Source: a bacterium (GTDB lineage: Bacteria; Patescibacteriota; Minisyncoccia; UBA6257; 02-FULL-45-10c). Taken from it: a stretch of DNA of 64,000 nucleotides. Within the stretch, counting starts at the first letter, position 1; each line of letters opens with the position of its first letter. Location of the stretch: assembly GCA_030700025.1 (NCBI GenBank), contig JAUYKI010000017.1, forward strand, positions 2,748 to 66,747, read 5' to 3'. Position numbers and translations under genes: made by a program. Positions 1 through 55,320 of this stretch are shown here, in pieces. A model generated the notes under the pieces. It made no database searches and was not told the origin of the DNA. It saw nothing but the letters and a program-made list of their open reading frames with translations.

Positions 1-56
1 TACCTTAAATCAGGCATGGGCAGGCGCTATCTAAAAAATAGATTAAAGCGCTTCCT

Positions 57-68
57 GGCTCTAACGGG
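57..68 (+). repeat. 3' arm of a CCCGTTAGA/TCTAACGGG inverted-repeat cassette (5' arm lies outside the window)
   Basis: ggcTCTAACGGG fused directly to ATG at 69. Same arm as at 1946-1959, 40504-40518 and 62471-62484. Confidence 0.5.
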
Positions 69-1781
69 ATGACGTCAAAAAATTTAAAAATTATCATTGG
101 GGCTCTTTTGGGAGTCATTGTCATCAGCCTTTTCTATATTTATATCAACGGGCGGCGGAATTTGGACTTGGCGATTGACGCGCCCGAAGAAGCGCTAATC
201 GGCGTGCCTTTTGATTTCAGGGTTGAGTTTAGCAACCAGTCCGGCTCGGTTTTGAAAGACGTTAACTTAACGGTGAGCTTGCCGGACGGAGCGGTATTTG
301 CCGGAAGCGGAGAGGACAAATTATTGGCGAATAAGAACTTGGGCAATGTCGGCGAAGGAAGCCTGATCGCGGAAACTTACCAAATCGTTTTTTTACGAGG
401 CGGTAATACTTCCCAGGAAATAAAATCCGTTATCAGTTACGCGCCGGGCAATTTACGCACGCATTTTGAAACAGTTAAGAAAGCGGAGATAGCTGTCCGG
501 GAAAGCGGAGTGGCAGTGGAGTTGGTAGGCCCGGAAAAAGTTTTTAACGGCGAAGAGTTTAGTTTTGATCTGGTTTATCGGAATGTTTCCGAGCTGGATT
601 TTTCCAATCTGGAGTTGCGGTTGGAATATCCGCCCAGTTTTACTTTTTTGGGCTCTTCTTTGGAGCCGGATAAGGGAAAGAACACCTGGACGTTAGGAGA
701 TTTGCGGAAGGGGTCGGAGGGGACTTTTGCCATCACCGGCAGTATTATCGGTCCGGAGAATGCCACGGCGGATTTTAAGTTTGGCTTGACCGCGAATATT
801 GCCGGTAAGAATTATGACTTGGAGATTAAGCCGTTTACTATGACTATCGCTCCGTCGTCATTGGGCTTGTCGGTGGTTTTGAATAACAAGCCCGAATACA
901 TTGCTAAAGCCAACGACGATTTGAATTACGTTATCAGCTACATTAATAATACCGATACTACTTTGCGGGATGTGGTAATCCGCGCCCAAGTAGTCGGAGA
1001 GATGTTTGATTTGGGCCTTTTGAATACCGACGGTCTGTTCCGTTCCTCGGATAATAAAATTATTTGGAATTCCCAAACAACGCCTTCCTTAGGTGTAGTT
1101 TCGCCCAGCAGCGCCGGCTTTGTTAAGTTCAGCATAAAAACCAAGGCCAGTTATCCAATCCGCCGGTTTGGCGATAAGAATTTTGTTTTGCGGATTAACG
1201 CGGAAATTGAATCGCCGACTCCGCCGGATTCCGGGGCTTCTTCCCGGACTTACAGCCTGGCCCGATTAGACAGCAAAGTTTCTGGTAATATAGTATTAGA
1301 CGTACGAGGATATTTCCGGGACGCGGAGGCGGGAATTTTAAATAAAGGAACTATGCCGCCGCGGGTGGGCCAGCCGACTAATTTTACGGTTCATTGGGTT
1401 TTGAAAAATTTTGCCAATGATATTTCCGGTTTGGAAATCCGTTCGGAGCTGAAAAGCGGAGTGCAATTTACCGGCGTGGCAAAAAGCAATTTCGGCCCCC
1501 TGCCATTTTACGACGAAAAAAACCGCCAATTAGTCTGGCAGTTGGATAAATTGTCGGCAAATAAAGGCGTGGTGGATCAGCCGCTGGAAGCAATATTTCA
1601 GATAGAAGCTACGCCATCGGCGAATCAGGTAGGGAATTATATGCCGCTTCTGGGCGAGACAATGGTTAAAGCGCTGGATAGCTTTACCGGACAGGAATTT
1701 TTAGCTTCCATGTCCGCGCTGACTACCGCTCTGCCCAATGATGTGACTATCGGCTCGCAAGGAGGAGTGGTACAGCCGTAA
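69..1781 (+). CDS. Membrane-anchored surface protein with repeated beta-rich (DUF11/CARDB-like) segments
   Basis: 570-aa ORF with an N-terminal TM helix (IIIGALLGVIVISLFYIYI) and repeated ~110-aa segments. The family assignment is from motif memory only. Confidence 0.6.
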   Translation: MTSKNLKIIIGALLGVIVISLFYIYINGRRNLDLAIDAPEEALIGVPFDFRVEFSNQSGSVLKDVNLTVSLPDGAVFAGSGEDKLLANKNLGNVGEGSLIAETYQIVFLRGGNTSQEIKSVISYAPGNLRTHFETVKKAEIAVRESGVAVELVGPEKVFNGEEFSFDLVYRNVSELDFSNLELRLEYPPSFTFLGSSLEPDKGKNTWTLGDLRKGSEGTFAITGSIIGPENATADFKFGLTANIAGKNYDLEIKPFTMTIAPSSLGLSVVLNNKPEYIAKANDDLNYVISYINNTDTTLRDVVIRAQVVGEMFDLGLLNTDGLFRSSDNKIIWNSQTTPSLGVVSPSSAGFVKFSIKTKASYPIRRFGDKNFVLRINAEIESPTPPDSGASSRTYSLARLDSKVSGNIVLDVRGYFRDAEAGILNKGTMPPRVGQPTNFTVHWVLKNFANDISGLEIRSELKSGVQFTGVAKSNFGPLPFYDEKNRQLVWQLDKLSANKGVVDQPLEAIFQIEATPSANQVGNYMPLLGETMVKALDSFTGQEFLASMSALTTALPNDVTIGSQGGVVQP

Positions 1782-1850
1782 TTTAGAATCTAATATCTAG
1801 AATCTAGAAAATAGAATTTATGAAAAATAAAGAACAAAACGATTTAATGG

Positions 1851-1959
1851 ATCCCGTTAGAAGGTGAAGAATCTTCGTTATTTTAGTAAAATTGCCAAGT
1901 ATTATGAAAATTAATAAAAATAATCAAAAAAGTGACGTTGGGGCCCCTTCTAACGGGAT
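1851..1959. repeat. Inverted-repeat-bounded intergenic cassette (CCCGTTAGA family)
   Basis: ATCCCGTTAGAAGG (1851-1864) is the perfect reverse complement of CCTTCTAACGGGAT (1946-1959). ATGGAT occurs directly at both outer junctions (1848-1853 and 1958-1963). Confidence 0.75.
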
Positions 1960-3340
1960 GGATAAGGTGATTAGCTTGTGCAAGCGGCGGGGTTTTATTT
2001 TTCCCGGATCGGAAATTTACGGGGGATTGGCAAATTCCTGGGATTACGGCCCATTAGGGGTGGAATTGAAAAATAATATCAAGCAGGAATGGTGGAGGCG
2101 TTTTGTGCATTCCCGGACGGATGTGGTGGGTTTGGATACGGCTTTAATTATGAACACCAAAGTTTGGGAAGCGAGCGGACATTTGAAGGAATTTTCTGAC
2201 CCGTTGGTGGAGTGCGATGTGTGTAAAAATCGGTGGCGTATTGATGCATTGGATCAAATGAGGGCTCGTAAAGCAGATGGCTCATATAGATGTCCAACAA
2301 TGACGGCCTCTTTTATTAAGGGGGGTGCCGATAGTTATTGCTCGGGCAAATTAAGTGAACCACGCCAGTTTAATTTAATGTTCAAAACTTTTTTAGGCCC
2401 AGTGGAAAGCGAAGACAATACAGTTTATTTCCGTCCGGAAACCGCGCAGGGAATGTTCGTAAATTTTAAAAACGTTTTAGAAACTACCCGCAAGCGTTTG
2501 CCGTTCGGCATTGCCCAGGTCGGCAAAGCATTCCGGAATGAAATTACTCCGGGCAATTTTATTTTCCGCACCCGCGAGTTTGAACAAATGGAAATAGAGT
2601 ATTTTACTCACGAAAAAGATTGGAAAGCTCATTTTGAAATGTGGCTGGAAGAAATGAGAAATTGGCTCCGGCATTTGGGGGTGAAGAAATTCCACGAAAC
2701 GGAAATTCCGGACGGCGAACGCGCCCACTATTCCAAGCGGACCGTGGATATTGAATATGACTTTCCGTTCGGCAAAAAGGAGCTTTATGGCCTGGCCTAT
2801 CGGACAGATTTTGATTTAAAAAAACACATGGATAAAAGCGGGGAGGATTTCCGGTATACCGATCCGGAAACTAATGAGAAGTTTTTACCGCATGTTATTG
2901 AGCCGACTTGGGGCGTTGACCGCTCGGTATTGGTTGCATTGCTGGAGGCTTACCATGAAGAAACGGTTAAAAGTGAAAAGTTAAAAGTGAAAAGTGAGGA
3001 CGATGAAGATACGCGGGTAGTTATGAAATTTCCAAAATGGCTGGCGCCGGTTAAGGTGGCAGTTCTGCCTCTTTCCAAGAAAGAAAATCTTTCCAGCCAA
3101 GCTAAAAAAATTCATGAAGATTTGGCAAAAGATTTTGTCTGTGAATATGACGAAACCCAAAGTATCGGCAAGCGCTATCGCCGGCAGGACGAAATTGGAA
3201 CGCCGTTTTGCGTAACAGTTGATTTTGAATCGCTGGAGGATAAAGCGGTAACGGTGAGAGATCGTGATACAATGAAACAAGAGAGAATTTCTATTTCTGA
3301 ATTAAAGAACTATCTAAATCAGAAATTAAATTCCGAATAA
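1958..3340 (+). CDS. glyQS: Glycine--tRNA ligase (class II, alpha2 type)
   Basis: MDKVISLCKRRGFIFPGSEIYGGLANSWDYGPLG is a typical GlyRS N-terminus. The ORF is open from TTG at 1892, but ATG 1958 matches family N-termini. It sits at the end of the repeat arm. Confidence 0.9.
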   Translation: MDKVISLCKRRGFIFPGSEIYGGLANSWDYGPLGVELKNNIKQEWWRRFVHSRTDVVGLDTALIMNTKVWEASGHLKEFSDPLVECDVCKNRWRIDALDQMRARKADGSYRCPTMTASFIKGGADSYCSGKLSEPRQFNLMFKTFLGPVESEDNTVYFRPETAQGMFVNFKNVLETTRKRLPFGIAQVGKAFRNEITPGNFIFRTREFEQMEIEYFTHEKDWKAHFEMWLEEMRNWLRHLGVKKFHETEIPDGERAHYSKRTVDIEYDFPFGKKELYGLAYRTDFDLKKHMDKSGEDFRYTDPETNEKFLPHVIEPTWGVDRSVLVALLEAYHEETVKSEKLKVKSEDDEDTRVVMKFPKWLAPVKVAVLPLSKKENLSSQAKKIHEDLAKDFVCEYDETQSIGKRYRRQDEIGTPFCVTVDFESLEDKAVTVRDRDTMKQERISISELKNYLNQKLNSE

Positions 3341-22088: not shown

Positions 22089-24686
22089 TTATAGCTTTTT
22101 AATTACCAACTTACCAACTTCAATTGCTAGAATGTTTACAAAACCGACTGCGAATACTCCCCAAAGCCAAACTGGCGGCAGGGCGATGGTATTTAAGATA
22201 TTTTGAAGCGGCAGCCAATAGATGGAGAAGGCCATCAACGTCAGTCCGAGAACTACGCCAGCTACCACATAGAGGTTAGAGAATGGATTAAAGGTGAAAA
22301 TACTTCTTTGAAGATTGCGGATGGCAAATATCAGGAATAGCGAATAAGTTCCGAATGACGCGAAAATAAAAGTCCTGACCAATAGCGGATCAAATCCCGC
22401 TTTAAGCAATCCGTAATAAAGTCCGAAAAGTAAAAAGCTGGTTGGAAGGCTGATGGCAAAGATTAAGAACTTCATTTCTCTGTCTAGCAGGCCCTTGGTT
22501 AGTTTTCGCGGCTGGGTAAACAGATATTCAAAGCGATCTTCAAAGGCCAGGGTAATAGCCGGCAAGCTATCGGTGATTAAATTAACCCATAAAATTTGAA
22601 CGGCGCTTAGGGGCAGGGTTAGGCCAAACAGCAATGACCCGCCGATTAGAATCAATTCATCTCCTACGGAAGAGAAGAAATAGACAATGACTTTGCGGAT
22701 GTTTTCCATAATACGGCGGCCCTCGGCAATGGCGGTTACGATAGTTTCGTAGTTGTCATTTAAGAGCACCAGCTCGGAAACATCTTTAGCGACATCAGCG
22801 CCGGATCCCATGGCGATGCCAATGTCCGCTTGTTTTAAGCTGGGCGCGTCATTAACTCCGTCGCCGGTCATAGCGACAATCGCGCCCATTTCCTGGTATC
22901 CTTTAACAATTTTTACTTTTCCTTCCGGGCTGACGCGGGAAACAAAACTTAAATTCGGCAGGCGGAGCTTCAATTCTTCCATGGAAAGATTTTCTAATTC
23001 GGCGCCATCCAAGCCATTTTCCTTTTTAATTGGAAAACCCAGTTCTTTGGCAATAGTTTCGGCGGTGCCTCGATGATCGCCGGTGACAATAACGGTTTTA
23101 ATTCCGACTTGCTGGGTGCGGTGAATGGCGTCGTGAACGCCCGGCCGCAAGGGATCGCGAAACGAAATAGTGCCGAGAAATTTCAGATTTTCTATTTTCG
23201 CATTGGCGGTTAAGGAAAAATTTTTGCCGGTTACATCTTTAGTGGCCACGCCCAGCACCCTTTCACCGCTGTGCGCCATATGGTTGATATTTTGCGTTAT
23301 TTTTTTGCCTTCTTCTTCGGAAGTCTGGCCGGACAATTTTAATAATATTTCCGGCGCGCCAAAAACCGTTAGCCATTCTTTTCCCTCGGATTCAATTATG
23401 GCCGCGGAATATTTATTTAAAGAGTTAAACGGCAGATAGCCGAGAGTTTTTACCTCTTTTTTTATTTTATGCGCTAAAACTCCGAATGCCGCGCCAGCCC
23501 GCACGACCGCGGTTTCCAGCGGACGCCCGACAATCCGCCACTTTTCGTAAGGATCCTTGGGATTCTCAATTACCACATCCGAATTAATAATGGCAATTTG
23601 AAGCAAGAACTTTTGAGTAGATTCTGAATTGTCCATTGTGGTGATATTGGCTAGCGACATCTTAGCTTCGGTCAGAGTTCCGGTTTTGTCGGTCAAGATT
23701 ATCGAAGTGCTGCCTAAGGTTTCCGCCGCGAGCAATTTTTTTACCACGGCTTTTTTTCGCGCTAATCTTTGGACGCCGACAGCTAGAATAACCGTTAAAG
23801 CCACAGGCAATCCTTCGGGAACGGCTGAAACCGCGATGGCGACGGAAGTCAGGAACATTTCAAATGGCGAGCGTCCGCTAAAAAGTCCTATGGCAAAAAC
23901 AACGGCAGTAAGGCTGATTAAAATAATGGATGCCTTGACGCTGAAGCGATTGATGGCAGTTTGAAGCGGAGTGTCTTCTTGCCGGTGATGATTCCGGACC
24001 AAAGAGGCGATTCTTCCTAGTTCGGAATTAAGCCCGGTATTACAGACTACGGCATTAGCAAATCCCTGGACAATCAATGTTCCGCTGAAAACCATATTTT
24101 TTTGGTCGCCGATAACCGCCTGGAAATTAACCGGCTGGATTGATTTTCGGACCGGCAGAGATTCGCCGGTAAGAATTGACTCGTCCACCGTTAAATCATT
24201 GATGTAAAGCAATCGGCCGTCGGCCGGAATCCGGTCGCCTTGCGTAAGATGGATGATATCCCCGGGAACTAATTCCGTGGAGTCAATTTCATATTCGCGG
24301 TTTTCCCGGATGGTCCTCACCCTTTCTTCAATATAGCTTTTCAAGTGGGCAAGCGCGTTGCCGGCTTTATTTTCCTGATAGAACCCCAAAAAAGTATTAA
24401 AAAAAGCCGCCGCTAAAATAATTAGGGCGTCATTATAATCTTTTACTAAAACGCTAACCAAGCCGGCAATGACCAGCAGAAAAATCAGCGGGCTTTGGAG
24501 CTGTTCCAAAAAAATTTTGAATTTTGTGGCGCGGCTTTTTTCCGGGATGGCATTGGCGCCAAATATATTGAGCCGTTCCTTGGCTTCGTTTTCGGTTAAC
24601 CCTTCCTGGTTAGTTTCCAGGCAGTCCAGAACCTCCGGAATGGGCAGGGCCCAAAAAGATTTTTTTATAATATTTTCAGATATCAC
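22089..24686 (-). CDS. P-type cation-transporting ATPase (P2/Ca2+-Mg2+ type)
   Basis: Motifs DKTGTLT, TGES and TGDGVNDAPSLKQADIGIAMG, with about 10 TM segments. Confidence 0.92.
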   Translation of the reverse strand: MISENIIKKSFWALPIPEVLDCLETNQEGLTENEAKERLNIFGANAIPEKSRATKFKIFLEQLQSPLIFLLVIAGLVSVLVKDYNDALIILAAAFFNTFLGFYQENKAGNALAHLKSYIEERVRTIRENREYEIDSTELVPGDIIHLTQGDRIPADGRLLYINDLTVDESILTGESLPVRKSIQPVNFQAVIGDQKNMVFSGTLIVQGFANAVVCNTGLNSELGRIASLVRNHHRQEDTPLQTAINRFSVKASIILISLTAVVFAIGLFSGRSPFEMFLTSVAIAVSAVPEGLPVALTVILAVGVQRLARKKAVVKKLLAAETLGSTSIILTDKTGTLTEAKMSLANITTMDNSESTQKFLLQIAIINSDVVIENPKDPYEKWRIVGRPLETAVVRAGAAFGVLAHKIKKEVKTLGYLPFNSLNKYSAAIIESEGKEWLTVFGAPEILLKLSGQTSEEEGKKITQNINHMAHSGERVLGVATKDVTGKNFSLTANAKIENLKFLGTISFRDPLRPGVHDAIHRTQQVGIKTVIVTGDHRGTAETIAKELGFPIKKENGLDGAELENLSMEELKLRLPNLSFVSRVSPEGKVKIVKGYQEMGAIVAMTGDGVNDAPSLKQADIGIAMGSGADVAKDVSELVLLNDNYETIVTAIAEGRRIMENIRKVIVYFFSSVGDELILIGGSLLFGLTLPLSAVQILWVNLITDSLPAITLAFEDRFEYLFTQPRKLTKGLLDREMKFLIFAISLPTSFLLFGLYYGLLKAGFDPLLVRTFIFASFGTYSLFLIFAIRNLQRSIFTFNPFSNLYVVAGVVLGLTLMAFSIYWLPLQNILNTIALPPVWLWGVFAVGFVNILAIEVGKLVIKKL

Positions 24687-25341: not shown

Positions 25342-26547
25342 TTAGATATTGTCCAGCGCTTGGGAGAGGTCGTTGATTAAATCTCGGGGATCTTCCCGGC
25401 CGATTGAGAGTCGCAGGGTAGACTGGGAAATTCCGGCTTTCTTCAGCTCCGCCGGGGTTAATTGTCCGTGAGTGGTAGTGGCCGGATGGATGACCAATGA
25501 CCGGGCCTCGCCAATGTTAGCGGCGTGCCAAAAGAGTTTTAATGATTCCAGGACTTTTCGGGCTTCCCGGATTCCGCCCCTAACTTCAAAAGCCATGAGT
25601 CCTCCAAATCCTTTAGGCATCATTTTTTTATTAAAACGCCGGCGATCGCCGTATTCCGGATAAAGAACCCTTTTAACTTTCCGATGGCGGGAAAGATATT
25701 TAGCCACTAAAGAAGCGTTGCGACAGTGTTCTTTCATTCGGCCGAAAAGCGATTCAATGTGGTAGCACAAAATAGCGGCATTATCCGGAGAAATGCACGG
25801 ACCAGTATCGCGGAACCAGCCGATTCGGATTTCATTAATAAGTTTCTTTCGTCCCAAAATGGCTCCCGCCACCACTTCGCCGTCCCCCATATATTTAGAT
25901 AGCGAATGGATTACAATATCCGCTCCCAGTTTTAGCGGCCGGAGCAGGGCCGGAGTAGAGAGGGTGTTGTCTACCACCAGCGGCAAATTATATTTATGCG
26001 CCAGGTTGGCAAGCATTTTAATATCAAATACGTCTAAGGTGGGATTGGACGGATTTTCTACGTAAAGAAATTTAGTTTTAGGGCCGATGGCTTTAGTCCA
26101 GGATTTTTCTTCCAGCGGTTTTTCCACGAAAGTAGTTTTAATTCCGAGCGCCGGCAGGCGATCACGGAATAAATGAAAAGTTCCGCCGTAGATGCGGTTG
26201 GAAGTTACGATGTGCCCGCCGTTGTTGGCGAGATGAAGGGCGATTAATTGGATTGCGGACATTCCGGAAGAAGTGGCTAATCCGGCCTCGGCATTTTCTA
26301 AAGATGCCAGCCGTTTTTCTAATTTATCAACTGTGGGATTATTGACGCGGGTATAAATAAATCCTTCTTCTTCGCCGGCAAATAATCGTTTAGCACGTTC
26401 AAAGGAACCCAGCGAAAATCCGATAACCCGGTGCAGGCCGGGACGCATTTCCGAATCGGTCAGCGATCCGCCCCCGTGGATTTCCAAGGTATTGGGATGC
26501 AGGGGCATTATTCTTTCCGGTTTGTTTGCTTTGGATTTTTTTGCCAT
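25342..26547 (-). CDS. metY: O-acetylhomoserine/O-acetylserine sulfhydrylase (Cys/Met PLP family)
   Basis: SLSKYMGD PLP-lysine region and family-typical length (401 aa). Confidence 0.85.
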   Translation of the reverse strand: MAKKSKANKPERIMPLHPNTLEIHGGGSLTDSEMRPGLHRVIGFSLGSFERAKRLFAGEEEGFIYTRVNNPTVDKLEKRLASLENAEAGLATSSGMSAIQLIALHLANNGGHIVTSNRIYGGTFHLFRDRLPALGIKTTFVEKPLEEKSWTKAIGPKTKFLYVENPSNPTLDVFDIKMLANLAHKYNLPLVVDNTLSTPALLRPLKLGADIVIHSLSKYMGDGEVVAGAILGRKKLINEIRIGWFRDTGPCISPDNAAILCYHIESLFGRMKEHCRNASLVAKYLSRHRKVKRVLYPEYGDRRRFNKKMMPKGFGGLMAFEVRGGIREARKVLESLKLFWHAANIGEARSLVIHPATTTHGQLTPAELKKAGISQSTLRLSIGREDPRDLINDLSQALDNI

Positions 26548-26656: not shown

Positions 26657-27073
26657 ATGAAGGAAGAAAATGACCTTTCCTACCTTCAGGCAGTAAAGGA
26701 AGACCTTAGCGATATTCCGATTATGGACTTCGGCAATCTGGCGCTTAGCGATGATTTAAAGATTAATACCCGGCAGACGATTTATACGGTTCGTTTTCTG
26801 GGCCCGCCTTCTCAAAAGAAACGCCTGGCCGGCATTCAAAGCACCGGCAAGCATCTTTTTGACGGTCGAGTTACATTGATTGGTTCGGAAGTAAAATCTT
26901 CTCCCGGCGGCGCGCTGACGGTTTTGGAAGGGGGATTGATGGTTGGATTTTCGGCTGTGTTCTTTGATATCGTTGAAGAAAGATTGTTGAAATTGCCGGT
27001 TACTCAGGAAGTTTGGCTGAACGGAAAAAGAATTTTGCCGGATTTCTCCAGAGTTCCCGCAAGGGAAAAATAA
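26657..27073 (+). CDS. Hypothetical protein
   Basis: 138-aa ORF with GGAGGGG upstream. Confidence 0.55.
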   Translation: MKEENDLSYLQAVKEDLSDIPIMDFGNLALSDDLKINTRQTIYTVRFLGPPSQKKRLAGIQSTGKHLFDGRVTLIGSEVKSSPGGALTVLEGGLMVGFSAVFFDIVEERLLKLPVTQEVWLNGKRILPDFSRVPAREK

Positions 27074-27147
27074 ATCCCGCTTAGAAGCAGGCCGCCCCAA
27101 GGTGGCTGTAGCCACTCGCTAAAAGCGAGGGCGGCTTCTAACGGGAT
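27074..27147. repeat. Compact hairpin member of the CCCGTTAGA family
   Basis: ATCCCGcTTAGAAGC..GCCGCCC pairs with GGGCGGCTTCTAACGGGAT. Two small apical hairpins. Starts right after the stop codon. Confidence 0.65.
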
Positions 27148-27280
27148 AAACAAACACTCCGCATAGCGGGGTGTTTTACTTTGGCTTGTCCTGCCTGCCC
27201 TGAGTCGTATCGAAGGGAGTTTGCTGGCAGTGAGCTTGTCGAATCTGCCGAAGGGGCTTGCGTTGAGCAAGGTCGAAGTG

Positions 27281-40392: not shown

Positions 40393-40398
40393 GAATGG

Positions 40399-40518
40399 AT
40401 CCCGTTAGAGATAGGCCGTCAAAGGCGGCCGTAGCTCGTCCGTTCTAATGGCGCTCAGAGTTTAAAATAAAAACAAAGGTTAATAATATAAATCTAATTT
40501 AGTTATCTCTAACGGGAT
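40399..40518. repeat. Inverted-repeat-bounded intergenic cassette (CCCGTTAGA family)
   Basis: ATCCCGTTAGAGATA (40399-40413) is the perfect reverse complement of 40504-40518. ATGGAT occurs at both outer junctions. Confidence 0.75.
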
Positions 40519-42250
40519 GGATGCTCAAGTTTTACTTAAAGCTCTTGTTGATAAGGAACTTCTAAAACAGGATCAGGCGGATAAGCTGATTCAGGAATCT
40601 TCGGCTGGGCAAAAATCCGCTGAAGATTTAATTTACGAAAACCGGCTGGTGGACGAAACCGAAGTGGCGAAAACCAAAAGCCAGCTTTTAAAAATACCTT
40701 ATAAGAAAATTTCGGCGGATACTCTGGATAAAGAATTTTTAAAAGTTATTCCGATTGAAACCGCCCAAACTTATAAAATAATTCCTATTTCCCGGACGGA
40801 AAATATGCTGGTGGTGGGAATGGTGAATCCGGACGACCAAAAAGCCCAGGACGCGCTCCGGTTTGTCGCTAAGCAATTGCACTCCAATCTTGGAGTTTAT
40901 TTGATTTCACACGGCGATTTGGACGCAGTCTTAAAAAAATATTCTCCGTTTAAAGATGAAGTAGAAGCGGCAGTGCGGGCTTTGGGGACTAGGCCGGGCA
41001 GGAAAGTCGGCCAGGCAATTCAACTGGAAGAGGGAACCGCGGTTACGGAAGAAGCGCCGGTAATTAAAATTGTCGCTTCAACGCTTAGAGAAGCGGTCAA
41101 CGTCGGAGCTTCGGACATTCACGTTGAGCCAGAGCGGGAAAAATTCCGGATTCGTTTCCGGATTTCCGGAGATTTGCAGACCATCAGCGAAATGCCGATT
41201 GAATTGCACCAGCCGATAGTTTCCCGCATTAAAGTTATGTCCAAGTTAAAATTAGATGAAAACCGCGTTCCGCAAGACGGCCGGTTTCGCAGCCAGGTAT
41301 CGGGCCGGGACATTGATTTCCGGATCGCGACTTTTCCAACTCCAGCCGGAGAAAAAGTGGCAATCCGGGTTCTGGATTCTTCTACCGGCTTACGGACTTT
41401 AAATGAATTGGGATATAGCGATCGGAATGTAAAAATTGCCATGGAGGCGATTGAGCGCCCGTTTGGCACCGTGGTCATTACCGGTCCGACCGGTTCGGGA
41501 AAATCCACCACTCTTTATTCGTTGATGCAGATTTTAAATCAGCCGGACGTTAACATCGTCAGCTTGGAAGATCCGGTGGAGTATTATATTGACGGCGCCA
41601 ACCAGTCGCAGGTTCGGCCGGAAATCGGCTATGATTTCGCCGCCGGTTTGCGGCAAATTTTGCGGCAAGACCCGGACGTGATTATGGTTGGAGAAGTGCG
41701 GGACGTGGAAACTGCCACTTTGACCATCCACGCCGCTTTAACCGGACACATCGTATTAACCACCTTGCACACTAATAATGTAGTGGGCGTAGTGCCCCGC
41801 TTATTGGATTTAAAAGTAGACGCGTTTTTATTGCCGCCGGCGGTAAATTTGATGGTGGCCCAGCGCTTGCTTTCCAAGCTTTGCCCGAAATGCAAAAAGC
41901 CCGAACCTGCTCCGGGAAATATCGCCGAAATGATCAAAAAAGAATTGGAAAAATTGCCGGCAGACGTCAGGGCGGAATTAAAATCTAAAGAACCGTATAA
42001 AATCTATCGGTCGGCCGGATGCGCTTCTTGTAAAAATAAAGGGACAGCCGGGCGGATGGCCATTTCGGAGCTTTTAAAAATGACTCCACAATTGTCGGAA
42101 ATTATCAGCGCCGGCCCGACCGAGAACCGGATTTTAGAAGAGGCTAAGCGCCAAGGAATGGTAACGATGCGGCAAGACGGAATTATTAAAGCCCTGGACG
42201 GATTATTGGGAATGGAGGAGGTATTGCGAGAGACTGCGGAGCTGACCTAA
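40517..42250 (+). CDS. pilB: Type IV pilus assembly ATPase PilB (GspE family)
   Basis: Walker A GPTGSGKST, Asp/His boxes and a tetracysteine motif CPKC...CASC. Confidence 0.92.
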   Translation: MDAQVLLKALVDKELLKQDQADKLIQESSAGQKSAEDLIYENRLVDETEVAKTKSQLLKIPYKKISADTLDKEFLKVIPIETAQTYKIIPISRTENMLVVGMVNPDDQKAQDALRFVAKQLHSNLGVYLISHGDLDAVLKKYSPFKDEVEAAVRALGTRPGRKVGQAIQLEEGTAVTEEAPVIKIVASTLREAVNVGASDIHVEPEREKFRIRFRISGDLQTISEMPIELHQPIVSRIKVMSKLKLDENRVPQDGRFRSQVSGRDIDFRIATFPTPAGEKVAIRVLDSSTGLRTLNELGYSDRNVKIAMEAIERPFGTVVITGPTGSGKSTTLYSLMQILNQPDVNIVSLEDPVEYYIDGANQSQVRPEIGYDFAAGLRQILRQDPDVIMVGEVRDVETATLTIHAALTGHIVLTTLHTNNVVGVVPRLLDLKVDAFLLPPAVNLMVAQRLLSKLCPKCKKPEPAPGNIAEMIKKELEKLPADVRAELKSKEPYKIYRSAGCASCKNKGTAGRMAISELLKMTPQLSEIISAGPTENRILEEAKRQGMVTMRQDGIIKALDGLLGMEEVLRETAELT

Positions 42251-44932: not shown

Positions 44933-45382
44933 ATGAAAAATAAAAAAGGTTTTACATTAATAGAAATTTTAATCGTTATCTCCATTATCGGGCTTTTGGC
45001 CTCGGTAGTGTTGGTGAATTTGGGAGGTTTTAGGGCTAAAGGAAGAGATTCGCGCCGGATTGCGGACTTACGGACTTTGCAAAATACCTTGGAACTTTAT
45101 TTTGGAGTTAACAATAAGTATCCAAGCGCCATAACGGAATTAATTAGTCCGGAATTGGGAGTTACCAGGTTACCTCAAGATCCAGGCACTACTTTGGATT
45201 ACTCCTATTGTTATAAAAATGACAGCGGCGGCAATCCAACCAGTTATATTGTAGGCGCTAAGTTGGAGGGTAGAAATGTGGCTTTGGATTCCGATGAAGA
45301 TGACACCGCTGGCTACACTTGCAGCGCGGCCACGGATTGTTCTGACGCGGCGAATGTCTGGGGTTACTGCATAAAGTTCTAA
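44933..45382 (+). CDS. Type IV pilin (major pilin candidate)
   Basis: Prepilin leader MKNKKG|FTLIEILIVISIIGLLA, with C-terminal cysteines. Confidence 0.9.
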   Translation: MKNKKGFTLIEILIVISIIGLLASVVLVNLGGFRAKGRDSRRIADLRTLQNTLELYFGVNNKYPSAITELISPELGVTRLPQDPGTTLDYSYCYKNDSGGNPTSYIVGAKLEGRNVALDSDEDDTAGYTCSAATDCSDAANVWGYCIKF

Positions 45383-48076: not shown

Positions 48077-50476
48077 ATGATTAAGGGGTTGCGCATTTTT
48101 ATTATTTTATCCGGAGCGTTTCTTTTGTCTTCTTCCGCCCTGGCGGGGTCGGGGGTTTATTCAGCTAATATTTTTGACGCCGGATTAAATGTATCTGGCG
48201 TTGGGCCGGTTGATTATTCGGATATTTTGAGCGCTCGGCTGGCGGGCTGGAATAATTTATTGCAAAGAGTTAATCCCCAAACCCCGCCTAATTATTGGAT
48301 TTGGCTTGGCCATATTGCGTCTTATGGTTATGCTGGATGCAGCAGCGCTTCTATCGGCGCTTTGTCGAGCGCTTATGGCAATCAATATGGTTTGGAAGTT
48401 TATAAAGATTCGGCAACCGGAAATTGCACGGCGCTTCAATCCAAACCGCTTTCTTCCGGCGCCACCCACTCAATAAATTTAACTAAATCCGGATTGGGAG
48501 ACGGGACAGTTAGTTCCAATCCAACCGGCATTAGTTGCGGAGCGATTTGTTCCAGCGATTTTACTCATGGCGCCAGCGTTGCGCTTAGCGCGGCTGCGGA
48601 TGGAGTTTCGCAGTTTGCCGGCTGGGGAGGAAATTTTTGCGCCGCTACCAGCACGCCAAGTAATTGTATGGCGCTGATGGTCAGCGACCGGACGATTACC
48701 GCAACTTTCGTTCCGATCGGAACCCCATTAAATACTTTAACCGTTCAAAAAATTGCAGTTGGCAATGCCAATGGCGTGATTACGGATTCCGGACTGGGCC
48801 AAGGGTCATTTTTAAATATTAATTGCGGAACTGATTGTTCCGAGTCCTATGTTGCCGGCGCGTCAGTTATTCTTTATGCCTATCCTAATGCCGAATCTAA
48901 TTTCGGATCTTGGGTTGGCTGTAATAGCGTTTCCGGCAATGCCTGCACGGTAACGATGAGCGCGGCCAAAAATGTCCGGGCTGGTTTTAGTAATAAAAAT
49001 TTTCCGGTTACGGTTTCTAAGACTGGAGCGGGAACCGGCAGCGTGTCTGGCACCGGAATTAATTGCGGAGCGACTTGTTCCGCGAATCTTTCGGCCGGAA
49101 ACGGATTTTTGTTTATTGCCAGCCCGGGGGTTAATTCTAAATTTGAAAGTTGGAGCGGCTGCGATTATTCAGCGGGAAATAATTGCTTAATAGATGTATT
49201 TTCGGCTAAATCAATTACCGCGAATTTCTCCGCCTCTTATGCGGTCACCGTTACGAAAAGCGGTAATGGCGCGCCTGCGGGCAGCGTTACTTCTACTGGC
49301 GGAATAGACTGCGGAATTATTTGTTCGGCTAGTTTTGTTCCGGGAGCTAATGTAGCTTTAACCGCCTCCGTGGGCGATCCTCAATATCAATTTTCCGGCT
49401 GGGGAGGCGATTGCGCTTCTTTCGGAACTAATCTAACCTGCAGTTTAAATAACATTTCTTCCGCTAAATCAGTTTCCGCTGTTTTTGATGCTGTTCGCCC
49501 GACTTTAACTATTACCAAATCCGGCACCGGAGACGGATCGTTTAGTATTAGCGGCGGTTCACCAATTTGCACCCCCGGTTGCGTTTACGCGTATGGCTCG
49601 GTAGTGACAATTTCCGCTACTCCAAACGCCTTTTCTACATTTACCGGCTGGACCGGTGATTGCGCTAGTTTTGGCGCGAACACCACCTGTACTTTAACTA
49701 TGACTTCTAATAAAAGCGCCTCGGCTATTTTTGACTTGCCGGTTCTGACTTTAAATAAGAGCGGCGCCGGGCAGGGAACGGTTTCGGATGCCCCATTGAA
49801 AATTAATTGCGACCCGTCTTGCGTTACTGCTTCCGCTAGTTACAACAAGCAAAGCTCCGTAACTCTGACCGCGGCGCCGGACGCCGATTCCAGCTTTTTT
49901 GACTGGTCCGGCTGTGATAATTTTACCCCCACCACCTGCACGATATTAATGAATACCCACCGGACCGTTACAGCCGATTTTTTAGCCACGGACGTTAAAT
50001 ATGATTTAACGGTTTCTAAGTCCGGAGCGGGCGACGGAACAGTTACTTCTTCGGTGGCGGGAATTAATTGCGGCGCCGATTGTTCTGAAAAATATATTGA
50101 AAATTCCGATATCGTTCTCCACTCGTCTTCTAATCTTGATTCAGCCTTTGTCGGCTGGACCGGATGCGATAGCGTTAATGGCAATTCCTGCGTAGTTACT
50201 ATGAGTACCGCGAAAAATATTAGCGCGGAATTTGCCGCGTCGCCGGTGTCCGGAAGTTATTCTTTGAGTGTTTTTAAAGTTCCGGACGGCGGAACAATAG
50301 TTTCCAGTGAAAGTTATATTGATTGCGGCGGGACTTGTTCCAAAACCCTAGGCACTGTTTGGAGCACTACACTGACCGTAATGACTAATAATGATTATCA
50401 ATTTGCCGGATGGACTGGAGATTGCACCAGCACCAGCGGAAGCTCATGCGTAATTAATTTTACCCAATGCCAATAA
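48077..50476 (+). CDS. Secreted protein with ~8 tandem divergent InlB-B-repeat-type domains
   Basis: Signal-like N-terminus. Repeating ~85-aa units (G.G.V.S.P.GI.CG..C...F..G..V.L.A.P...S.F.GW.G.C....C.V.M...K.V.A.F). Confidence 0.8.
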   Translation: MIKGLRIFIILSGAFLLSSSALAGSGVYSANIFDAGLNVSGVGPVDYSDILSARLAGWNNLLQRVNPQTPPNYWIWLGHIASYGYAGCSSASIGALSSAYGNQYGLEVYKDSATGNCTALQSKPLSSGATHSINLTKSGLGDGTVSSNPTGISCGAICSSDFTHGASVALSAAADGVSQFAGWGGNFCAATSTPSNCMALMVSDRTITATFVPIGTPLNTLTVQKIAVGNANGVITDSGLGQGSFLNINCGTDCSESYVAGASVILYAYPNAESNFGSWVGCNSVSGNACTVTMSAAKNVRAGFSNKNFPVTVSKTGAGTGSVSGTGINCGATCSANLSAGNGFLFIASPGVNSKFESWSGCDYSAGNNCLIDVFSAKSITANFSASYAVTVTKSGNGAPAGSVTSTGGIDCGIICSASFVPGANVALTASVGDPQYQFSGWGGDCASFGTNLTCSLNNISSAKSVSAVFDAVRPTLTITKSGTGDGSFSISGGSPICTPGCVYAYGSVVTISATPNAFSTFTGWTGDCASFGANTTCTLTMTSNKSASAIFDLPVLTLNKSGAGQGTVSDAPLKINCDPSCVTASASYNKQSSVTLTAAPDADSSFFDWSGCDNFTPTTCTILMNTHRTVTADFLATDVKYDLTVSKSGAGDGTVTSSVAGINCGADCSEKYIENSDIVLHSSSNLDSAFVGWTGCDSVNGNSCVVTMSTAKNISAEFAASPVSGSYSLSVFKVPDGGTIVSSESYIDCGGTCSKTLGTVWSTTLTVMTNNDYQFAGWTGDCTSTSGSSCVINFTQCQ

Positions 50477-53456: not shown

Positions 53457-55103
53457 ATGGAAAACTGGAAACAAAAAATTTATTTATTGTTGGCGTTGGC
53501 GGGAATTGGATTTATCGCGGGAACCGTTTTTGCCGCGGATGCCGGGGTTCGCTGGTTTCAAACCGATCCGGTCGCCGGGGCAATCTGGACTGCCAGAAAC
53601 GGACACTCGGCTCTGGTTTTTAACAACAAAATGTGGATTTTAGGAGGAACTCTCTCGCCGGGTTATAAAAATGATGTTTGGCTTTCTTTTAATGGCATCA
53701 ATTGGGTTCAACGGACTCCGTCCGCCGCGTGGCAGGCCAGGACCGAACACGCGTCCCTAGTCTTTAATAATAAAATGTGGGTTTTGGGAGGATCTATCTC
53801 GACGGGTTTTAAAAATGATGTTTGGTCTTCCGCGGATGGATTTACTTGGAATTCAGAAACTGCCGCGGCCGCCTGGCCGGCAAGAGATCGCCACGCGTCC
53901 CTAGTTTTTAATAATAAAATGTGGATTTTAGGAGGATCTACCTCGGCGGGTTCGAAAAATGACGTTTGGTCTTCCGTGGACGGAATTACTTGGACGCAAG
54001 AAACTGCTTCCGCCGGCTGGTCTCCGCGTTTCGACTTAGTAGCTCTCGTTTTTAATAACAAGATGTGGGTTTTAGGCGGCAGTGGTTCTCTGAATGATGC
54101 TTGGTCTTCTTCAGATGGAGTTACGTGGACCAGGGTCAGTCCGGCAATTGGCGCTGATTGGCCGGGGCGGTCCGGGCATACCGGAGTGGTTTATGACGGA
54201 AAAATGTGGATTTTTGGCGGACAAAGAGCAAATACCATTTTTAATGATGCTTGGTATTCCGTGGACGGAATAAGTTGGTCTCAGGCGTTATTAGCGGCTG
54301 ATTCTCAATGGGGCGCCCGATGGAATCACGCTTCTTTAGTCTTTAATAATAAAATGTGGATTTTGGGCGGTTCTGGCGGCCCTAATAAAAATGATATTTG
54401 GCATTCCCAGCAGGATAATCTTCCGGTGGAAGCGTGCGTGATTACCAGTGATAGAAATCGGACTGTTGACGCGGAATTTAAAGGCCAGCTTTATACGGTT
54501 ACGGTGGTTAGCATTAATCAGGACGGAGCCGGAAAAGGCGCGGTTAGTTCCACGGATAATAAAATCAGCGATTGCCAAACGATTTGTTCCGCCGAAAATT
54601 ATGCTTACAATTCCAGTGTTGCTTTAAACGCCATGGCCGCCGACGGTTCGGAATTTGACCATTGGGAAGGGCCAAGCCCTTGCGATAACAGCGCCGAATT
54701 GAGCTGTTCTTTGACTTTAACCGGCGATGTAACTGTTTACGCGGTATTTAAATCGTTGATGGCCGCTTGCGTGGTGGAAAAATCAGTTACCGCGAACTTT
54801 GCCACTTCTTTTCCGACTTGTACGCTGACGATTGCTCCGCAAGGAACAAATGCCAGTCAGGCAATTATTTCTTGGACCACCACTAATAATCCGACTAGCG
54901 CTGTTATAGATGATGGCGTTGGTGCGCCAGTAGCGGTGACTATCCCGCCGGCCAGCGGTAGCATGACGATTACTCCGCCTGGCAACACTACTTATATTAT
55001 GACCGTCACGAATAACGCCGGCAGCCGCACTTGCAGCGCTCAGGCTTCAGCGGCGCCCGGAAGATTTCAATTTAAAGATATTCGCGAAATTCTCCCGTTT
55101 TAG
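53457..55103 (+). CDS. Secreted Kelch-repeat beta-propeller protein with C-terminal B-repeat/Ig-like region
   Basis: Six blades with the ATGTGG landmark spaced 141-150 nt apart (53631, 53775, 53919, 54063, 54204, 54354). Confidence 0.8.
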   Translation: MENWKQKIYLLLALAGIGFIAGTVFAADAGVRWFQTDPVAGAIWTARNGHSALVFNNKMWILGGTLSPGYKNDVWLSFNGINWVQRTPSAAWQARTEHASLVFNNKMWVLGGSISTGFKNDVWSSADGFTWNSETAAAAWPARDRHASLVFNNKMWILGGSTSAGSKNDVWSSVDGITWTQETASAGWSPRFDLVALVFNNKMWVLGGSGSLNDAWSSSDGVTWTRVSPAIGADWPGRSGHTGVVYDGKMWIFGGQRANTIFNDAWYSVDGISWSQALLAADSQWGARWNHASLVFNNKMWILGGSGGPNKNDIWHSQQDNLPVEACVITSDRNRTVDAEFKGQLYTVTVVSINQDGAGKGAVSSTDNKISDCQTICSAENYAYNSSVALNAMAADGSEFDHWEGPSPCDNSAELSCSLTLTGDVTVYAVFKSLMAACVVEKSVTANFATSFPTCTLTIAPQGTNASQAIISWTTTNNPTSAVIDDGVGAPVAVTIPPASGSMTITPPGNTTYIMTVTNNAGSRTCSAQASAAPGRFQFKDIREILPF

Positions 55104-55129
55104 TTAGAAGGTTTTAACTCGAAGTCGAA

Positions 55130-55252
55130 GCAACATCTCTTTAAGGGAACATCCCGCAGGCGTATTTTGCTTGGACCACAAAATACGCCGAGGGCGAAGA
55201 AAATCCGGCCGCTGGAGCCGGATTATTCTGTTTCCCAAAAAAGAGATGTTGC
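55130..55252 (+). other. Three-helix structured intergenic element
   Basis: Outer arms 55130-55151 and 55229-55252 (bulged) enclose hairpins at 55159-55189 (11 bp) and 55202-55224 (7-8 bp). Confidence 0.45.
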
Positions 55253-55320
55253 TAAGATCCTTGACGGGGATTTTTTAATGCCATAAAATATACTGGCGTT
55301 CTTTAACAAAGCAACAAGGT

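Follow-up and report, generated by a model that had tools for sequence, protein, structure and literature searches.

The inverted-repeat cassettes in a 64,000-nucleotide stretch of a Patescibacteriota genome (GenBank assembly GCA_030700025.1, contig JAUYKI010000017.1, positions 2,748 to 66,747 of the forward strand; hereafter the window) are shown here to be copies of a large, cross-phylum family of very small mobile elements. The element is of the type bounded by terminal inverted repeats (TIRs) and a target-site duplication (TSD), and it lands on start/stop junctions where it rebuilds the start codon. That the cassettes belong to a mobile TIR/TSD family whose long form encodes a GIY-YIG open reading frame (ORF) is, in our judgement, very likely. 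The complete explanation that we favor, a tiny transposable family whose movement would be driven by its own nuclease and whose host genes would be kept in expression by translational coupling, we regard as reasonably probable.

Eight TCTAACGGGAT arms are present in the window, at 60(+), 1851(-)/1949(+), 27137(+), 40399(-)/40508(+) and 62364(-)/62474(+). All are exact in a search that tolerated up to one mismatch, for which shuffled sequences gave a mean of 1.1 and a maximum of 4 matches (0 of 100 shuffles reached eight); relaxing the search to three mismatches added matches at chance level only. A first-pass annotation of this DNA had listed these members and described a conserved core with distal arm bases that differ yet remain complementary; all the members are indeed present, and the complementarity holds within each window copy. 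The arms form four inverted pairs (1853-1861/1949-1957, 27076-27085/27137-27145, 40401-40409/40508-40516 and 62366-62374/62474-62482), leaving one unpaired arm at 60-68 adjoining the window edge. Long stems are predicted for all four complete cassettes, with z-scores of -3.8 to -6.2 relative to shuffles.

Wider samples were drawn from a scan of species genomes, one genome per species, for CCCGTTAGA-N75-105-TCTAACGGG, which returned at least 119 loci (short copies), and from a scan of metagenome contigs for arms lying 245-275 nt apart, which returned at least 120 (long copies); sampled loci carry L-numbers as labels. Among the species-genome matches listed, the hosts are mostly Patescibacteria, accompanied by Omnitrophota, Deltaproteobacteria/Desulfobacterota, Planctomycetota (including Brocadia), Elusimicrobia, one spirochaete and one gammaproteobacterium. 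Viral carriage is disfavored, as 2.9 million viral contigs yielded only 2 and 3 matches. Arm pairs that the scans had not selected vary in size, from bare hairpins up to about 120 nt. No description of the element was found in the searchable literature under its arm sequence, GIY-YIG with TIR, TSD or transposase, UPF0213/YhbQ/COG2827, or MITE (miniature transposable element with inverted repeats) together with start codon, most subscription papers being outside the scope of that search.

The element ends in 10-bp TIRs, YCCCGTTAGA and TCTAACGGGR, so that a copy reads [Y]CCCGTTAGA…TCTAACGGG[R]. In 140 short copies, the base adjacent to the core is complementary to its counterpart at the other end in 95% of cases, as T..A or C..G, and the six nucleotides that flank one arm recur in direct orientation beside the other, with per-position identities of.51,.83,.75,.78,.79 and.45. 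The flanking duplication is thus a 4-bp T-N-N-A sequence, mostly TGAA, TGGA or TAAA. Exact duplication was found in 69 of 87 short copies of the T..A type (11.3 expected from shuffles) and in 51 of 103 of the C..G type (7.3 expected); the corresponding figures for long copies are 27 of 46 (8.6 expected) and 10 of 53 (2.1 expected). Inverted flanks are depleted. Inward of the 9-bp core, three positions are variable yet complementary, with a mixture of AU, GC, UA and CG pairs among 81 sequences. Covariation at the four positions flanking the core scores 0.32 against 0.13 in shuffles, a value that none of 500 shuffles attained, and it falls to about 0.1 when the register is slid. Two recombination sites were considered for these ends. 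An integron attC site is contradicted by the order of its boxes, GTTAGA...TCTAAC being inverted relative to 5'-RYYYAAC ... GTTRRRY-3', and no integrase recurs near the loci listed. A core site for a tyrosine or serine recombinase (an 11-2-11 or 9-6-9 palindrome) was set aside because the flank statistics gave a 4-bp direct duplication.

The position of the element with respect to genes is equally distinctive. Among 141 short copies, 73 are followed immediately by an ATG or GTG that opens an ORF of at least 60 codons. At 49 short copies an upstream ORF ends within a few bases of the 5' arm, by means of the TGA of an ATGA overlap at -5 (n=13) or a TAG inside the arm (n=22). The host start codon is chimeric, its purine being the terminal base of the element and its TG belonging to the duplication. 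Fusions that bear the duplication have ATG in both copies in 81 cases, ATG upstream with GTG at the present start in 11, and the reverse in 4. On insertion, the left copy of the duplication retains the old start or stop, and the last base of the element (A or G) together with the TG of the right copy makes the new ATG or GTG; when insertion occurs just after the old ATG, the transcript has the element at its 5' end. The suggestion that a target-site duplication had copied the start codon is therefore correct for the TG, whereas the first base comes from the end of the element, as the ATG/GTG exchanges demonstrate. ATGA start/stop junctions, ATGG starts and TAA or TGA stops all match the TRRA pattern, so that surviving insertions lie exactly at gene boundaries.

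Related sequences from other loci reveal the state of the target without the element, as the first-pass annotation had proposed to examine. The empty site L228 reads ...GTTATGAAAATCGG (in a longer stretch, …GACTGTTATGAAAATCGG…), and its filled counterpart L147, whose flanks are 82% identical, reads ...GTTATGAA (longer, …GACTGTTATGAA)-T[CCCG…CGGG]A-TGAA-AATCGG. Likewise, the empty site L010 reads …TATAATTTAAAATATGGAAAC… and the filled site L205 reads ATGGA-T[…]A-TGGA-AAT. These two empty/filled pairs confirm the 4-bp duplication.

Further signs of movement come from long copies that are 91-96% identical to one another, yet occupy differing positions within, or at the end of, homologous and far more divergent genes (L217 at about 2438, L224 at about 1328 and L184 at about 116; L144 at 2416-2689 and L195 at 62-338). 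Long elements have thus hit homologous genes repeatedly and at different codons. The genes concerned carry a C-terminal motif that is ORF6N-like, as judged by eye, and at these loci the upstream ORF ends on a TAG in the arm (...L-P-R-stop). Four cases of tandem copies have a single common R-TNNA-Y junction; tandem and nested copies share N6 junctions, and in L008 a short copy is nested inside a long copy. Two copies in L231 (2662-2937 and 2989-3073) interrupt a gene that by eye is MazG-like and that is intact in L020 (720-960); the interrupted gene is either dead or split. Movement is not evident everywhere: the database protein P0068 represents a single conserved locus across samples, which indicates stable inheritance. 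Taken together, the terminal inverted repeats, the 4-bp TNNA duplication, the empty sites and a coding partner that shares the same ends bear out the first of two readings offered by the first-pass annotation, namely a MITE-like element that inserts at start codons.

That coding partner, the long form, measures about 290 bp and contains one ORF of 83-99 aa, oriented like the downstream host gene. An 89-aa ORF lies between the longer arm pairs of L105 and L008, and its GIY-YIG domain is recognized by Pfam (PF01541) at E=5.7e-14. An ORF of at least 80 aa is present in 88 of the 120 metagenome matches listed, of which 82 also pass filters on the GIY motif and the flanks. When these 82 intact copies are oriented by their ORF, 44 have a host start fused to the 3' arm on the same strand, and a single copy has one fused to the 5' arm on the opposite strand. 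The ORF is welded into the arms at both ends. In 51 of 82 copies the frame continues across the 3' arm (…F-L-S-L-T-G) to a TGA or TAA at +1, a stop codon that is supplied by the duplication and forms an ATGA overlap with the host start; in 17 of 82 it stops on a TAA inside the arm. It starts in 18 of 82 copies at the upstream copy of the host ATG (-6), passing through the 5' arm as M-(N/D/S/R)-P-V-R, the alternative being an ATG of its own 13-28 nt inside the arm.

The encoded protein is shown by sequence and fold to be a minimal GIY-YIG nuclease of the Slx1/UPF0213 type. The nearest solved sequences found by phmmer are the UPF0213 proteins BH0048 (1zg2, E=5e-10) and EF2693 (1ywl). The AlphaFold model (predicted local distance difference test score 91) has a β-β-α-β-α-α fold, for which the best Foldseek matches in the PDB are again 1zg2 and 1ywl, followed by Slx1, of the Slx1-Slx4 nuclease that acts on branched DNA (7cq3_A, with TMq 0.61 and root-mean-square deviation 2.2 Å; 6seh). 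No variation is seen at residues Y5, Y15, G17, R25, H29 and E61, among which are the catalytic Tyr, Gly, Arg, His and Glu; the alignment includes two reference sequences, entered in part from the phmmer alignment. Beyond the core domain there is one C-terminal helix and no extra DNA-binding module such as NUMOD. A protein search made independently of DNA selection returned 6,224 clusters at E up to 1e-5, and among the best 120 of these, 105 end in …LTG and 20 start with M.PVR. In databases the homologs go under no other names than 'GIY-YIG nuclease family protein', 'excinuclease ABC subunit C' and 'putative endonuclease'.

The window itself contains the end of one such gene. In nhmmer, a profile made from 88 long elements aligns its model positions 210-277 with window positions 1-68 (E=9.1e-17), and the GIY-YIG ORF tail at 1-69 translates as YLKSGMGRRYLKNRLKRFLALTG. 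This long-element 3' end (1..73, forward strand) is cut by the window edge; its 3' arm TCTAACGGG lies at 60-68, with the terminal A at 69 and the flank TGAC at 70-73, and its stop TGA at 70-72 overlaps the ATG at 69-71 of ORF 69-1781. Hence, what had been described as a right arm only, at 57-68, is in fact the tail of a nuclease gene.

The relationship of the short cassettes to the long form is confined to their ends. Once stripped of their arms, none of 203 short interiors matches the long-form profile in nhmmer, and Smith-Waterman comparison placed 26 above the shuffle maximum where 16.6 were expected. The earlier observation that interiors are unrelated is thus borne out among the short cassettes and extends to the comparison with the long form. 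These results do not support a derivation of the short cassettes as deletion relics of the GIY-YIG gene, for which relic MFY codons and a KRF palindrome had been considered. With only the ends and the duplication in common with the long form, the short cassettes are best described as MITE-like. A promoter within the cassettes, of the extended -10 box kind, was also considered, but promoter-like matches are at chance level.

Four genes in the window begin with an ATG fused directly to a right arm, as the first-pass annotation had noted: ORFs 69-1781, 1958-3340, 40517-42250 and 62483-63121. The third of these is T2SSE/PilB-like and follows the short cassette at 40396..40521 on the forward strand. 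Here the duplication TGGA (40396-40399 and 40518-40521) brackets an element at 40400-40517 whose arms, 40401-40409 and 40508-40516, are extended by GATA/TATC and whose stem has a predicted energy of -42.4 kcal/mol (z -4.9). An upstream ATG at 40395 opens a short ORF (sORF) of 17 codons, with its stop at 40446-40448, and the host ATG lies at 40517. The short cassette at 1848..1962 (forward strand) has the same design, with TGGA at 1848-1851 and 1959-1962, an element at 1852-1958, arms at 1853-1861 and 1949-1957, and a stem of -31.9 kcal/mol (z -3.8). Its upstream start copy, ATG 1847-1849, opens the 6-codon sORF MDPVRR (stop 1865-1867), and its host, with ATG at 1958, is a GlyRS-like class II aminoacyl-tRNA synthetase with an HGTP anticodon domain (ORF 1958-3340). 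The ATGGAT said to lie at both outer junctions of these two cassettes is present, although the upstream copies begin at 1847 and 40395, one base earlier than reported. The window is syntenic with the Parcubacteria/Paceibacteria contigs L055 and L081, from which a patescibacterial origin is probable; in L081 the GlyRS-like ortholog likewise starts directly after a cassette, the interior of which differs.

The two remaining complete copies depart from this design. The forward-strand cassette at 62365..62483 (arms 62366-62374 and 62474-62482) contains an inner second stem, CGCGATC/GATCGCG, and is followed by an ORF whose ATG lies at 62483. It has no start codon at the upstream position; instead, the stop of an upstream amidase (GatA-like) ORF, 60925-62373, is a TAG at 62371-62373 inside the 5' arm. 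In nhmmer, its segment 62438-62482 is weakly matched by the long form's 3' end (E=0.009). The compact cassette at 27071..27150, to which no strand is assigned, lies at a gene end, where the left copy of its TAAA duplication (27071-27074, repeated at 27147-27150) holds the TAA stop of ORF 26657-27073. Its element, 27075-27146, forms a stem of -44.8 kcal/mol (z -6.2) and has a 1-nt insertion in its left arm at 27076-27085 (CCCGcTTAGA); it has no fused gene start and is followed by a hairpin resembling an intrinsic terminator. The target-site duplication suspected earlier is therefore real, but it is 4 bp in size (TGGA, TGGA and TAAA) and is found in three of the four complete window copies. A sub-terminal hairpin beside the left arm is similar in two cassettes, at 40414-40440 (AGGCCGTCAAAGGCGGCCGTAGC) and 27090-27116 (AGGCCGCCCCAAGGTGGCTGTAGC), and a comparable hairpin, GGAAATC-TAAA-GATTTCC, recurs beside one arm in cassettes of other genomes. 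A possible decayed copy proposed earlier at 55093/55263 (55093..55276, no strand assigned; CCCGTTttagTTAGAAGG ... CCTTGACGGGG) was not validated, as each arm needs at least three changes or indels and matches at three mismatches are within chance. Between these possible arms, at 55110-55262 in the intergenic region after a Kelch-repeat ORF, lie the strong hairpins aaaatacgcc/ggcgtatttt and tccggc/gccgga.

Insertion at a start codon raises the matter of how the host gene is translated. It had been remarked that genes fused to cassettes lack a Shine-Dalgarno sequence; this is true but not special, since only 12 of the 47 window ORFs of at least 120 aa have one and its absence from the other 35 makes its lack at cassette-fused genes ordinary. 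In many window ORFs a TATAAT lies 7-8 nt before the ATG (e.g. 25342-26547(-), 22089-24686(-), 44933-45382, 48077-50476 and 57163-57582), and a large share of the genes in this organism look leaderless from their sequence. In 22 of 65 start-fused short cassettes, a frame that begins at the upstream ATG stays open throughout the cassette, as far as a TAA in the arm or an ATGA overlap. Shuffles gave 5.9±2.2 such sORFs with a maximum of 14, and the other two forward frames gave 2 and 0. The spanning sORFs comprise 33-45 codons (MNPVR...SYF or ...LTG) and are not conserved in sequence, so that selection appears to act on translatability and not on the peptide. Neither of the window sORFs, of 6 codons in the copy at 1852-1958 and 17 codons in that at 40400-40517, reads through its cassette. 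In the long copies the ATGA overlap points to termination-reinitiation, and the arrangement of these frames suggests that host-gene translation may be kept by coupling of this kind.

How might so small an element move? We infer that the encoded nuclease may mobilize the family. It would cut the paired ends, folded as a hairpin or cruciform, and would cut TNNA targets with a 4-nt stagger, after which host ligase and repair would finish the move. The four window cassettes without an ORF would then be mobilized in trans, with the long copy at window 1-72 as a possible source. A stronger version, that the approximately 290-bp long form is a fully autonomous transposon whose sole product, an Slx1-like GIY-YIG nuclease of about 85 aa, is a transposase responsible for structure-specific end cutting and staggered TNNA cutting ahead of host ligation, is put forward tentatively, as an idea somewhat less likely to be right than wrong.

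Several observations weigh against the explanation that we favor. For nuclease-driven movement, the 9-bp core would have to be recognized by a protein of only 85 aa that has no DNA-binding domain besides the nuclease. Short interiors have no significant likeness to the long form, the link between the two consisting of shared ends, shared duplication and co-occurrence. The duplication is itself imperfectly kept: it is absent from the window copy at 62365-62483 (ATTA versus TGGC), exact duplication is missing in 40 of the 53 C..G-type long copies, and some copies inside ORFs have no clean duplications (L231). Flanks of the C..G-type long copies are often TTCA or TTTA on the left and TAAA or TGAA on the right (e.g. 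L141, L151, L160, L179 and L185); being neither a direct nor an exact inverted repeat, they do not fit a simple duplication model. The empty/filled pairs come from loci outside the window. Finally, all samples were picked by exact 9-mer arms, with the consequence that arm conservation and family limits are measured with bias; core invariance in the sample follows from its selection on the core.

Three other explanations can be set against these data. One, which develops the second reading of the first-pass annotation, holds that the paired arms are chiefly an RNA element of benefit to the host, whose stem juxtaposes the upstream stop or start with the AUG or is cut by an RNase III-like enzyme to yield a leaderless mRNA, mobility being secondary or ancient. 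The strong stems of the window cassettes, the covarying pairs that flank the core, the exactness of the window arms while interiors differ, and the entry of upstream ORFs and sORFs into the 5' arm would all be expected of such an element, and a processed 5'-AUG could be translated in an organism where most window genes look leaderless. Covariation, however, is equally expected of a DNA hairpin or cruciform; RNase III cuts within stems and not at their base; the compact copy at 27075-27146 precedes no gene; and no Rfam family is matched, the Rfam 15 covariance models, run at the gathering threshold, having detected only tRNAs in the window and, with E allowed up to 5, no family at the cassettes. 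A selfish element is favored instead by the duplications and empty sites, by copies in tandem or nested in one another, by insertions at the ends of genes and within ORFs, and by a long form that encodes a nuclease. Nothing found requires the stem or RNase III reading, and we consider an RNA element of this kind unlikely.

A somewhat better, though still improbable, alternative is that both forms are non-autonomous and are moved by an unrelated DDE, tyrosine or serine enzyme encoded elsewhere, the GIY-YIG gene being a passenger or a colonizing homing endonuclease. TIRs with a duplication of fixed length are a hallmark of DDE enzymes, the tandem junction TCTAACGGG-R-TNNA-Y-CCCGTTAGA resembles a recombinase core site, the 85-aa protein has no obvious sequence-reading domain, and the short interiors are unrelated to the long form. 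Yet no recombinase or transposase recurs within 8 kb of the 119 loci listed, and the ORF is so closely joined to both arms that they encode its N-terminal PVR and C-terminal LTG. Moreover, a small GIY-YIG ORF between inverted repeats recurs with other repeat sequences, and the spread of the family through many phyla argues that the element carries its own needs. Much further from the evidence is a kinship with repetitive extragenic palindromes (REP/REPIN) spread by RAYT, an IS200-like Y1 transposase. Here too the elements are hairpin-forming intergenic repeats, and RAYT-like genes are present in 4 of the 119 loci listed, but those genes have hairpins of a different sequence on either side, no target duplication is made by REP elements whereas one is present here, and no RAYT-like motif was found in the window. 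We therefore reject this possibility as very improbable. The RAYT-like genes themselves (L012 7212-8000, L040 278-988, L070 7567-7998 and L100 3586-4245) are accompanied by the REP-like hairpins ACTTGGGTGC...GCACCCAAGT and ACAAGGTTCAACCTTGT, with a further hairpin copy inside the ORF.

A nuclease-bearing TIR/TSD element has likenesses to several known systems. Bacterial MITEs and insertion sequences (IS) of the TIR-TSD type, such as the Correia elements of Neisseria and MITEs derived from IS630/Tc1, share ORF-less short copies, TIRs and a duplication of fixed length, as well as many dispersed copies, insertion beside genes and long RNA or DNA stems. The present family differs in that its sole coding partner is a GIY-YIG nuclease and not a DDE, HUH, Ser or Tyr enzyme, in that the whole putatively autonomous unit is about 290 bp, and in that the interiors of short copies are not derived from the long form; its TNNA target at start and stop codons, its rebuilt start codon and the conservation of its ends across phyla also set it apart. 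Free-standing GIY-YIG homing endonuclease genes of the T4 Seg/Mob type are likewise small and selfish, wedged between host genes and co-expressed with them. Homing, however, copies a gene into a cognate allele by break repair, with no duplication and no inverted-repeat ends, and its enzymes carry additional DNA-binding modules. The unrelated insertion sites, TIRs and duplications seen here, together with proteins of 83-99 aa that have no NUMOD-like modules, led us to reject a homing endonuclease gene. The ends of piggyBac-type elements, TTAA|CCC...GGG|TTAA, are alike in form only, in having a 4-bp T..A duplication that abuts CCC/GGG termini; the present elements have a TNNA duplication, an extra Y/R base and no DDD transposase. 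IS200/IS605 elements are the smallest autonomous IS known. They too are very small and rely on DNA hairpins at their ends, but they use an HUH Y1 transposase, have neither TIRs nor a duplication, and measure about 700 bp or more.

The stand-alone UPF0213 or bacterial Slx1-like proteins (BH0048, EF2693; 'Slx1 non-Eukaryota' of PMC1564403) are the best match in sequence and fold, and share the catalytic residues and the minimal size. They are regarded as repair proteins of unknown role, and no inverted-repeat or duplication context for them is described in searchable papers; the subfamily carried by the element is set apart by one additional basic segment, GMGKRYLKNRLKRF, and by a tail that the arm encodes. 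The substrate of eukaryotic Slx1 is branched DNA, which fits the hairpin or cruciform ends proposed here. Dunin-Horkawicz et al. (2006; PMC1564403) drew attention to stand-alone Slx1-like GIY-YIG domains, whose 'extraordinary evolutionary mobility' was unexplained, and posed the question of whether such domains are molecular parasites, and GIY-YIG genes are among those that Patescibacteria appear to donate to other bacteria (PMC12455944).

If the nuclease does mobilize the element, the puzzle raised in 2006, with its odd fusions and insertions, would be explained (PMC1564403), GIY-YIG would join DDE, HUH, serine, tyrosine, DEDD and Cas1 in the set of transposases, and the size limit of an autonomous mobile element would fall to about 290 bp. 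An autonomous long form would be the smallest autonomous transposable element known and the founder of a new mechanistic class of transposase, with a built-in hijack of host start codons in which ribosomes are handed back via the ATGA overlap. There are also consequences for annotation. In Patescibacteria and further uncultured phyla, thousands of proteins annotated as 'GIY-YIG nuclease family protein' or 'excinuclease ABC subunit C' probably belong to selfish elements, gene starts beside the elements are chimeric with some switched from ATG to GTG, and a short ORF that opens with MNPVR is either an artefact of insertion or a device for coupling. The elements also serve as markers of recent gene flow from one phylum to another, and the family offers a natural system for the study of translation reinitiation and leaderless expression in organisms that are becoming genetically tractable (Saccharibacteria).

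The architecture appears to be more general than this one arm sequence, for other GIY-YIG homologs lie between different inverted repeats, e.g. ACCCGGTAGTACAAC/GTTGTACTACCGGGT (L196 1332-1577, L175 181-384, L171 229-465 and L229 4956-5153). This suggests several sister element families with different ends. Small GIY-YIG homologs are also found beside duplicated 5' halves of tRNA genes, in L004 (4439-4651) and L032 (2229-2462). In L032 the copy of the tRNA D-loop carries an inserted palindrome, which is another insertion context for the same protein family.

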